Under the pieces are notes generated by a model. The model was not told the DNA's origin, searched no databases, and was given only the letters and a program-made list of their open reading frames with translations. Below are positions 1,447 to 2,288 of a stretch of 10,294 nt of DNA, one piece after another (position 1 is the first letter of the stretch; the number at the start of each line of letters is the position of its first letter). Location: the UHGV virus genome UHGV-1838671; one strand, written 5' to 3'. The position numbers and the translations under genes were made by a program. The DNA is from a virus.

Positions 1447-1641
1447 TTAATTATTCTGCTGATTTTCTTCCATCTCGGCTTCTGCTGCCAGTGATTCAAT
1501 TTTATCTGTGAATATTGCTGACAGTGTTGCAAATTCAGCATCAGTGACAGCGGGAATTGGAACAAACCTGATCCCGCTGTGTGCAAGCATGTTTGCAGTT
1601 TCAAGGCATTTCCTTAAATCTGCTGGTGATGCCCTGTTCAT
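1447..1641 (-). CDS. Small hypothetical protein (64 aa) with acidic C-terminal tail, translationally coupled to the methyltransferase
   Basis: ATG at 1641-1639 overlaps the methyltransferase TGA stop (1640-1638) in an ATGA arrangement. GGGAG Shine-Dalgarno 8 nt upstream. Product MNRASPADLRKCLETANML...AAEAEMEENQQNN. The 104-aa version in the ORF track would overlap the methylase by 120 nt and is less likely. Confidence 0.45.
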   Translation of the reverse strand: MNRASPADLRKCLETANMLAHSGIRFVPIPAVTDAEFATLSAIFTDKIESLAAEAEMEENQQNN

Positions 1642-2288
1642 GCTGCACGCTCCCGCCCCTGGTTGTCTGTTGGTGACAGCGGAGAATTGCTGAATGCATT
1701 TGTTAATCCGCCAATATCCAACGCGTATCCAGGGTGTAGTTGCACTGCCGGGTCTTCGCACTGATTACCCCAAACATCGAAGCCATGAGACGACTGGCGG
1801 GCGAACAGTTCAATGCGAGAAACATCGCCTAACAATTGCACAAGTTTTTCACGAACGACATCTGGTTTTCTTGAATGCTCAAGCCGCGGTGCGGTAAATG
1901 ATTGAACGATCCCTGCATTAATGCGCGGAGGTAGTTTTCCCTTTACTGCAAACAGGCAATATTCACTATTTGCGCGAGTCATGTGTCCCATACCCATAAC
2001 CAGTTTATCTGGTTGTCGACTACCACATTTTATCCACGTGAAGCCCTTCATGGTCATCAGACGGAATCCCCAGGCTTCAACAACTTTTAGCGCTTCGAGT
2101 GGTTGTGTTGGCACCCACCACATTGCCAACAGACAGTTTTCATCGGCCAAATCCCACACAGGAAGGCGGCAGATATCCAGCACACTCATAACCGGATATT
2201 TAAAACCGGCACCGCGATTACCATCTGCGGCTTTGTCCCGGTATACCCAGGGGGGATCTGCATAGATTAGTGTGTATTTCTTAGTCAT
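1638..2288 (-). CDS. DNA N6-adenine methyltransferase, MT-A70 family
   Basis: Catalytic DPPW motif in LIYADPPWVY near the N-terminus. ATG at 2288 (MTKKYTLIYADPPW) preceded by GGGGTGG; the track's 2300 start is an upstream GTG. Overlaps the stop of the upstream gene by 8 nt. Confidence 0.85.
   Translation of the reverse strand: MTKKYTLIYADPPWVYRDKAADGNRGAGFKYPVMSVLDICRLPVWDLADENCLLAMWWVPTQPLEALKVVEAWGFRLMTMKGFTWIKCGSRQPDKLVMGMGHMTRANSEYCLFAVKGKLPPRINAGIVQSFTAPRLEHSRKPDVVREKLVQLLGDVSRIELFARQSSHGFDVWGNQCEDPAVQLHPGYALDIGGLTNAFSNSPLSPTDNQGRERAA

Follow-up and report, generated by a model that had tools for sequence, protein, structure and literature searches.

Two genes on the minus strand occupy positions 1,447 to 2,288 of a 10,294-nucleotide (nt) stretch of viral DNA (UHGV virus genome UHGV-1838671), which in its full length is referred to as the window: a gene for an MT-A70 family adenine methyltransferase and, directly behind it, a 64-amino-acid (aa) open reading frame (ORF) encoding a homologue of Orf63 of phage lambda. 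The pair is made up of the following elements:

1638–2288, minus strand: MT-A70 family N6-adenine methyltransferase, 216 aa, orthologue of PhiV10p33 (PF05063, phrog_359, PADLOC MTase_II)
2247–2258, minus strand: codons of the DPPW catalytic motif, residues 11–14 (reverse complement GAT CCC CCC TGG)
1447–1641, minus strand: lambda Orf63 homologue (DUF1382), 64 aa, orthologue of PhiV10p32 (PF07131, phrog_292, PDB 8DSB)
1638–1641, minus strand: ATGA stop/start overlap between the methyltransferase and the Orf63 homologue (the plus strand reads TCAT)
1642–1654, minus strand: junction element GGGAG-CGTGCAGC, a ribosome-binding site with an 8-nt spacer, which also encodes the methyltransferase C-terminus …ERAA

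The coupling of the methyltransferase (1638–2288) to the small ORF (1447–1641) through ATGA, which had been described in an initial annotation of this DNA, was confirmed. The TGA stop codon of the methyltransferase (1640–1638) overlaps the ATG of the small ORF (1641–1639), and the GGGAG of the ribosome-binding site, likewise reported before, is situated at 1654–1650, 8 nt upstream of this ATG. The evidence presented below makes it probable that the two genes are independently shuffled cassettes of known families, which end the leftward early operon of a phiV10-like (Uetakevirus) E. coli phage or prophage, and that they do not constitute a dedicated pair of enzyme and partner.

The predominant part of the methyltransferase, which starts with MTKKYTLIYADPPW, is formed by the MT-A70 domain. 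Residues 5–176 align with the complete PF05063 profile (positions 1–172 of 172; E=9.7e-22, 78.1 bits compared to a cutoff of 23.9), and the protein is also matched by phrog_359 (E=4e-119) and by the Type II methyltransferase model of PADLOC, MTase_II (E=7e-77). Among the solved MT-A70 chains, matches were obtained to ciliate MTA1 (7f4r, E=6e-13; 7f4r/7f4l, about 1e-12) and to METTL3 (E of about 1e-6). The DPPW site is intact and forms part of a YADPPW sequence at residues 9–14. The catalytic domain (residues 5–176) is followed by a variable C-terminal tail comprising residues 188–216. NCBIfam contains no match for either the methyltransferase or the 64-aa protein, and PADLOC none for the small ORF or for the PerC-like protein encoded upstream. 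A restriction endonuclease was found neither among the ORFs and in the profile scans of the window nor in the annotation of the complete 39-kb phiV10 genome, and the neighbours of the methyltransferase are genes for a PerC-family protein, DUF1382 and an integrase. The methyltransferase is thus an orphan without a cognate endonuclease, as had been stated initially.

The small ORF had been regarded as devoid of any recognisable motif. However, it encodes a full-length member of the DUF1382 family (PF07131, E=1.4e-30, 105.7 bits compared to a cutoff of 27), in which residues 1–60 correspond to profile positions 1–60 of 60, and it matches lambda Orf63 itself (PDB 8DSB, E=5.8e-13) as well as phrog_292. 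The longest ORF at this site, 104 aa with a GTG start, was rejected because the PF07131 alignment begins at the first residue of the ATG-started protein. The C-terminus of the 64-aa protein, AAEAEMEENQQNN, forms the acidic tail that had been noted before (pI 4.5). The ratio of non-synonymous to synonymous substitution rates (dN/dS) is 0.20 for a set of 32 distinct phiV10-type alleles and 0.14 when 17 more distant enterobacterial homologues are compared, which indicates that the small ORF is a genuine coding gene under purifying selection. In one phiV10-type contig from IMG/VR (locus L114, 3001–3190) DUF1382 is frameshifted to a 33-aa N-terminal fragment next to an intact methyltransferase, representing either a pseudogene or a sequencing error.

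Lambda Orf63 (UniProt Q38267, PDB 8DSB) and the window protein share about 49% identity. The GIRFVPIP strand is kept in the window protein, with Gly23, Phe26, Val27 and Pro30 invariant in the alignments, and the residues highlighted for lambda Orf63, Arg3, Arg10, Glu36 and Lys47, are present. An AlphaFold2 monomer model (mean predicted local distance difference test score, pLDDT, of 88) predicts a helix (residues 6–21), an extended segment (22–33) and a second helix (34–63); the predicted layout agrees with that given in PMC10869804 for the AlphaFold model of lambda Orf63. An acidic, disordered C-terminus is likewise common to the two proteins. Whereas the profile search proposed in the initial annotation thus assigned the protein to DUF1382, the structure-based search retrieved nothing: Foldseek of the model against the PDB gave no match at E<=0.001, 8DSB included; such an outcome carries no information where a monomer model of 64 residues stands for an intertwined dimer.

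The 8DSB entry is a nuclear magnetic resonance structure of the 63-aa lambda protein, which is exclusively dimeric, adopts a helix-strand-helix fold and is encoded in the exo-xis region (PMC10869804). The orf63 gene is transcribed early from pL (PMC10869804, PMC5575149, PMC8614690), and its translation was confirmed by ribosome profiling, as cited in PMC8614690. Without orf63, prophage induction is later and weaker and more of the host cells survive (PMC5575149). The cleft of the dimer binds a designed amphipathic helix (PMC10869804), and yeast two-hybrid screens pointed to Ren, Q and YqhC as partners (PMC8614690). The exchange K54E abolished the pro-lytic effect of lambda Orf63 (PMC10869804). 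In the window protein residue 54 (1480–1482) is a glutamate where lambda Orf63 has Lys54. Since Glu54 corresponds to the inactivating K54E state of lambda, phiV10-type Orf63 homologues may be functionally different or may use another partner. Moreover, lambda-identical orf60a-orf63 segments (loci L017–L030) were encountered on short or about 48-kb contigs labelled Bradyrhizobium, Paenibacillus, Kitasatospora, Oceanobacillus, Leeuwenhoekiella and others, which almost certainly reflect lambda contamination or spike-in of those assemblies.

Comparison with known phages revealed that positions 1300–2700 of the window are about 98% identical in nucleotide sequence to phiV10, TL-2011b, the O157 typing phages 9 and 10, and others. 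In RefSeq, the phiV10 genes are listed as "DNA methyltransferase" (PhiV10p33) and "DUF1382 family protein" (PhiV10p32). Within the pair, the window differs from phiV10 by point differences only, and both share the gene order, the ATGA overlap, the convergent integrase gene 3 nt away and the upstream PerC and AlpA genes. The same pair is found in TL-2011b, in O157 typing phages 9 and 10 and in many E. coli prophages; altogether, 539 of 5426 complete E. coli genomes (about 10%) contain the region, where PGAP names the products "MT-A70 family methyltransferase" and "DUF1382 family protein".

Each of the two genes also occurs without the other. In DE3, 933W and VT2-Sakai, as in lambda, orf63 is flanked by orf60a (DUF1317) and orf61, and there is no MT-A70 gene. 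In lambda the gene overlaps these neighbours by 28 and 20 nt, respectively, whereas the Orf63 homologue of the window is the terminal cistron behind an MT-A70 gene. The enzyme of Enterobacter phage Tyrion (Uetakevirus), in turn, is 80% identical and shares the C-terminal tail, and the downstream ORF that overlaps its gene by 4 nt is an unrelated one of 68 aa; a hidden Markov model search of the whole Tyrion genome found no DUF1382. The tail of the window-type methyltransferase was considered as a docking helix for DUF1382, which is ruled out by its presence in Tyrion. Within complete E. coli genomes, the enzyme allele is present in 537 and the DUF1382 allele in 373 (371 contiguous), so that about 31% of the carriers of the enzyme allele are without this small-ORF allele. 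In the one example of the latter that was examined, NADC1036 (locus L129, 2347–3006), the slot is taken by a gene for a Metallophos Ser/Thr phosphatase, which likewise overlaps the methyltransferase gene by 4 nt. Phages vB_EcoP_PAS61 and BP9 belong with this polymorphism of the DUF1382/phosphatase slot.

The order of the genes is not fixed either. At loci L108, L109, L115 and L220, DUF1382 precedes MT-A70, again with a 4-nt overlap. Phages of the PA8 type combine an 82%-identical enzyme with a DUF1382 protein which is only about 42–53% identical to that of the window and is joined by a different, longer junction. Due to these differences in DUF1382 identity and junction, the two genes are not inherited as a unit, and the methyltransferase and the Orf63 homologue assort independently in a pairing that is not obligate.

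To place the overlap into a wider context, DUF1382 genes were surveyed at 277 loci; their 159 unique proteins fall into 29 clusters at 80% identity, and the neighbouring genes into 86 families. A junction with the consensus GGnGnTGCrGC-ATGA, starting about 13 nt before the start codon, is conserved upstream of enterobacterial DUF1382 genes irrespective of the gene that precedes them. Instances compared were window positions 1642–1654 (minus strand) and the segments just upstream of position 3001 of loci L010, L014, L108 and L117–L123. The genes sharing this junction encode MT-A70, DUF1317, an unannotated family of about 200 aa, DUF7446 and others, and the same 4-nt overlap thus links DUF1382 to many unrelated upstream genes. 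Because the junction sequence is conserved, the unrelated upstream proteins end alike (…GGAA, …ERAA, …GGTA). Since conservation of the junction holds whatever gene precedes, the ribosome-binding site and ATGA belong to the Orf63 cassette and to arrays of this kind. Accordingly, every junction at L108 is an ATGA, along a series of DUF1317, an ORF of about 190 aa, DUF1382, MT-A70 and a 55-aa ORF. The element resembles a linker or a stretch of micro-homology and could promote the shuffling of cassettes.

The commonest neighbour of DUF1382 is an unannotated family of about 190–280 aa (F1) with the motif MKERGMIFNGEMV…RKTQTRR, which is located upstream of 29 and downstream of 9 unique DUF1382 proteins (e.g. 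L108 2432–3004, L117–L122 and many IMG/VR loci). The 190-aa representative from L108 has no Pfam or NCBIfam match.

Methyltransferases of any kind were mapped within about 4 kb of DUF1382, using diverse homologues from the locus scans. The 58 dereplicated placements include the following gaps between the two genes:

0–500 bp: 19 placements
500–1000 bp: 16 placements
1000–1500 bp: 11 placements
1500–2000 bp: 10 placements

About 10 of the 58 (about 17%) are directly adjacent, which approximates random occupancy of an array with four to six slots. A preferential adjacency of DUF1382 and methyltransferases was rejected, as the placements are roughly uniform over 0–2 kb. The arrays are rich in orphan methyltransferases of several families and adjacency is not enriched: besides MT-A70, DUF1382 abuts a Dam-family enzyme (PF05869, L009), a C5 methylase (L035) and probable D12-type and DPPH-motif enzymes. 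In Klebsiella/Enterobacter-type prophages (L217, L202, L206, L209, L010) two to three methyltransferases of different families (MT-A70, Dam PF05869, D12-like, Sasha-type and C5) are encoded on one strand; at L217 three of them lie within about 1.5 kb of DUF1382, while their spread at the remaining loci reaches up to about 2 kb.

The surroundings of the pair in the window are formed by the following features:

2281–2580, minus strand: PerC-family regulator gene (PF06069, E=6e-7; phrog_868, E=6.5e-62)
2690–2938, minus strand: AlpA/excisionase-like helix-turn-helix gene, upstream in the same operon (PF05930, E=3e-5; phrog_66)
193–1443, plus strand: P4-type tyrosine integrase gene (Pfam Arm-DNA-bind_3, Phage_int_M, Phage_integrase)
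5404–5432, minus strand: candidate pL-type early promoter TTGACA-17-AATCAT (consensus scan only)

The genes are arranged in the order YqaJ-type exonuclease, RecT, AlpA, PerC, methyltransferase, Orf63 homologue and then int, so that the small ORF is the last cistron of a leftward early operon and the integrase gene is convergent to it. The candidate promoter is located just downstream of the terminator of the repressor gene (5484–5503) and would drive the operon that ends in the methyltransferase and the Orf63 homologue; the gene order parallels that of phiV10. Due to its location between YqaJ/RecT and int, downstream of repressor, terminator and pL-like promoter, the region between the recombination genes and int is the positional equivalent of the exo-xis region of lambda, where the Orf63 gene likewise belongs to an early leftward operon between recombination genes and int. 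The stop codons of the integrase gene (plus strand) and the Orf63 homologue (minus strand) are 3 nt apart (1443–1447). Since no terminator-like hairpin was found between or near these stops, transcription from either side probably continues into the opposite gene and yields antisense RNA. The stop of the PerC-family gene overlaps the methyltransferase start by 8 nt, and its own start is probably the ATG at 2547, following the phiV10 annotation. The product is a small PerC/ANR-like regulator, with a match to NCBIfam ANR_neg_reg below the cutoff. PerC-family proteins of prophages are regulators of virulence genes in pathogenic E. coli, and a prophage carrying the PerC-like gene may affect gene regulation of its host.

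Further upstream, the RecT and YqaJ-exonuclease block (2992–4915) is unlike phiV10, which has a RecE/RecT fusion, whereas the flanks are 97–98% identical. This block is a mosaic replacement within an otherwise phiV10-like genome. At the left end, positions 1–260 match free phiV10 DNA at 97% and, at the same identity, positions 896–1155 of L129, where the prophage of NADC1036 starts directly after the guaA stop codon. Because of these two matches the lineage integrates next to guaA, with the att core situated to the left of the window.

The closest studied homologue of the methyltransferase is gp5 of the Shiga toxin (Stx) phage phiPA8, M.EcoPA8orf6770P, with 82% identity over residues 1–187 (E=2e-122). 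With this enzyme, spontaneous induction of the Stx2a prophage and virulence are both higher (Gong, Chakraborty & Koudelka, NAR 2023/24, PMC10810198). According to the same study, MT-A70 enzymes usually require a second subunit, and the purified PA8 enzyme alone showed near-background activity on DNA or RNA, including dam-/dcm- DNA. It forms a 1∶1 complex with PNB-2, a winged-helix protein encoded immediately upstream, and the resulting holoenzyme prefers 16S rRNA, by more than 13-fold, and 30S subunits; binding of PNB-2 was proposed to be mediated by the C-terminal ~27 residues of the enzyme. A DPPW to APPA mutant was inactive in complementation, and for phiPA2 a plasmid carrying the methyltransferase only restored the phenotype, whereas the APPA mutant did not (PMC10810198). 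The DUF1382 gene downstream of the PA8 enzyme is not discussed there. For M.EcoGV of E. coli O104:H4, a highly similar enzyme, methylation of GATC in DNA upon over-production in vivo is mentioned in PMC10810198, and the REBASE-derived tables in PMC6602927 give GATC as well.

The window resembles the PA8 and M.EcoGV loci in the prophage-encoded enzyme with its DPPW site, its position near int and the DUF1382 ORF that follows. It differs, however, in the position taken by PNB-2, where a PerC-family gene is found instead, and in the DUF1382 gene, which is divergent in PA8 and joined by a longer overlap rather than ATGA. With PNB-2 as query, tblastn gave no match at E<=1 to either the window or the complete phiV10 genome, and homologues of PNB-1 and PA8 gp3 were not found by tblastn in these two sequences either. 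The PerC-like ORF was tried as an equivalent of PNB-2 and ruled out, given the tblastn result and a BLASTP comparison which produced no alignment at E<=100. Furthermore, the alignment to the PA8 enzyme stops at residue 187, beyond which the tails are unrelated (YALDIGGLTNAFSN...GRERAA in the window versus IVKFLEKTNERKNDVDKGITS in PA8). Since PNB-2 is absent and the PNB-2-binding tail is replaced, two of the three features that define a phiPA8-type holoenzyme are lacking in the window; the catalytic subunit, judged by its sequence, is clearly the same kind of enzyme. In Tyrion, two small winged-helix-like ORFs flank the methyltransferase (L003, 2784–3011 and 3645–3851), the upstream one matching HTH_24/MarR (E=2.8e-6) and the downstream one giving weak winged helix-turn-helix matches. 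By analogy to PNB-2 of PA8, this hints that different small winged-helix proteins may serve MT-A70 enzymes in different phages.

The suggestion of the initial annotation that the small ORF may be a specificity or modulating subunit would, in its most developed form, make the Orf63 homologue a substitute for PNB-2, a subunit dedicated to targeting, activating or modulating the enzyme, with ATGA ensuring stoichiometric co-production. Such a role is very doubtful. It would fit the typically heteromeric nature of MT-A70 enzymes, of which the PA8 homologue is almost inactive alone (PMC10810198), the failure to find PNB-2 in the window or in phiV10, the direct contact of DUF1382 and MT-A70 genes in phiV10-type, PA8-type and reversed-order L108-type prophages, and the ability of the Orf63 cleft to bind an amphipathic helix (PMC10869804); moreover, both Orf63 and the MT-A70 enzyme are reported to promote induction (PMC5575149, PMC10810198). 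However, Tyrion has the enzyme with the same tail in a genome lacking DUF1382, close to a third of the E. coli genomes with the enzyme allele do without the small-ORF allele and in the example examined use the slot for a phosphatase, and lambda and 933W have Orf63 without MT-A70. The independent assortment, the reversed gene order, a junction that is borne by the cassette and remains unchanged beside unrelated upstream genes, and methyltransferases at all distances from DUF1382 without a peak at adjacency leave the suggestion unsupported. In addition, the specificity subunit of the characterised close homologue is the upstream-encoded PNB-2 (PMC10810198), which is absent here, and complementation by the phiPA2 methyltransferase-only plasmid but not by its APPA mutant likewise speaks against such a role.

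Of the alternatives considered, the one ranked highest in confidence concerns the enzyme itself, which the initial annotation had taken for an anti-restriction-type enzyme: it would act early as a DNA methylase for self-protection, e.g. at GATC, and the small ORF would be irrelevant to it. This is possible, if rather unlikely, and it is compatible with the organisation of the locus in independent cassettes. The orphan state, the early operon, the intact DPPW site, the PADLOC match, the GATC entry in REBASE for M.EcoGV, which derives from over-expression in vivo, and the wealth of accessory arrays in orphan DNA methyltransferases of several families all agree with it. Orphan phage adenine methyltransferases such as M.EcoVT2Dam and T1-type Dam (PF05869) likewise lack an endonuclease, are cargo of early operons and occur in DUF1382-containing arrays, but they belong to the Dam/D12 fold family, in contrast to the MT-A70 enzyme with its putative DNA specificity. 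On the other hand, activity of the PA8 homologue was near background on dam-/dcm- DNA and its holoenzyme prefers 16S rRNA (PMC10810198), so that an anti-restriction function of the enzyme is unproven, and methylation of GATC would be largely redundant in Dam+ E. coli. Next in rank, and improbable, is a 16S rRNA N6-methyladenine (m6A) enzyme that tunes spontaneous prophage induction like the phiPA8 holoenzyme, using a different targeting partner. The identity of the catalytic domains, the nearest solved relatives (MTA1 and METTL3/14-type enzymes) and the biochemistry and genetics of PA8 (PMC10810198) speak for it. Yet the RNA preference of PA8 is conferred by PNB-2, the C-terminal ~27 residues that bind PNB-2 are replaced by an unrelated tail, and even for PA8 the modified base in 16S rRNA is unmapped (PMC10810198). 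The Orf63 homologue as a subunit of the enzyme ranks last of the three.

If the pair consists of independent cassettes, as favoured here, the leftward region would be functionally equivalent to the exo-xis region of lambda, with small accessory cassettes lined up head-to-tail and each linked to the next by a 4-nt ATGA overlap, and both genes would be transcribed early from pL after induction or infection. The overlap would then reflect ordinary translational coupling, which sets expression and does not imply a protein complex. Because PNB-2 is lacking and the C-terminal tail is different, the enzyme is most likely an m6A methyltransferase that works alone and is weak or of low specificity; its likeliest target would be GATC in DNA, as listed by REBASE for M.EcoGV, although RNA is possible. 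The Orf63 homologue would be separately pro-lytic, as in lambda and Phi24B; in lambda and Stx phages the protein makes prophage induction and lytic development faster and stronger. Several points weigh against this interpretation. As MT-A70 enzymes usually need a second subunit, some neighbouring protein could serve this enzyme. MT-A70 and DUF1382 genes are direct neighbours in three or more arrangements, and higher prophage induction has been reported separately for each of the two proteins, which is at least suggestive of a shared pathway. The substrate of the subfamily is disputed between DNA GATC and 16S rRNA, as far as PMC10810198 and PMC6602927 bear on it, and the pL assignment is that of a candidate from a consensus scan. 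A broader proposal, in which the Orf63 family are general small adaptors that dock on nucleic-acid-modifying enzymes and here replace PNB-2 for MT-A70, is highly speculative; were it true, Orf63 and the MT-A70 methyltransferase, each reported independently to promote induction in Stx and lambdoid phages, would belong to a single pathway.

Both genes are already annotated in RefSeq and both families are the subject of dedicated papers, so that the pair as such is ordinary and already known. The small ORF is better named an Orf63/DUF1382 homologue, and the work on rRNA methylation in phiPA8 cautions against taking the methyltransferase for an anti-restriction DNA methylase. Nor should a partnership of the two proteins be deduced from the translational overlap. 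The phiV10-type enzyme does without the PNB-2 that its Stx-phage relative requires, and the natural DUF1382/phosphatase polymorphism of the slot provides ready-made strains that differ in the downstream gene.

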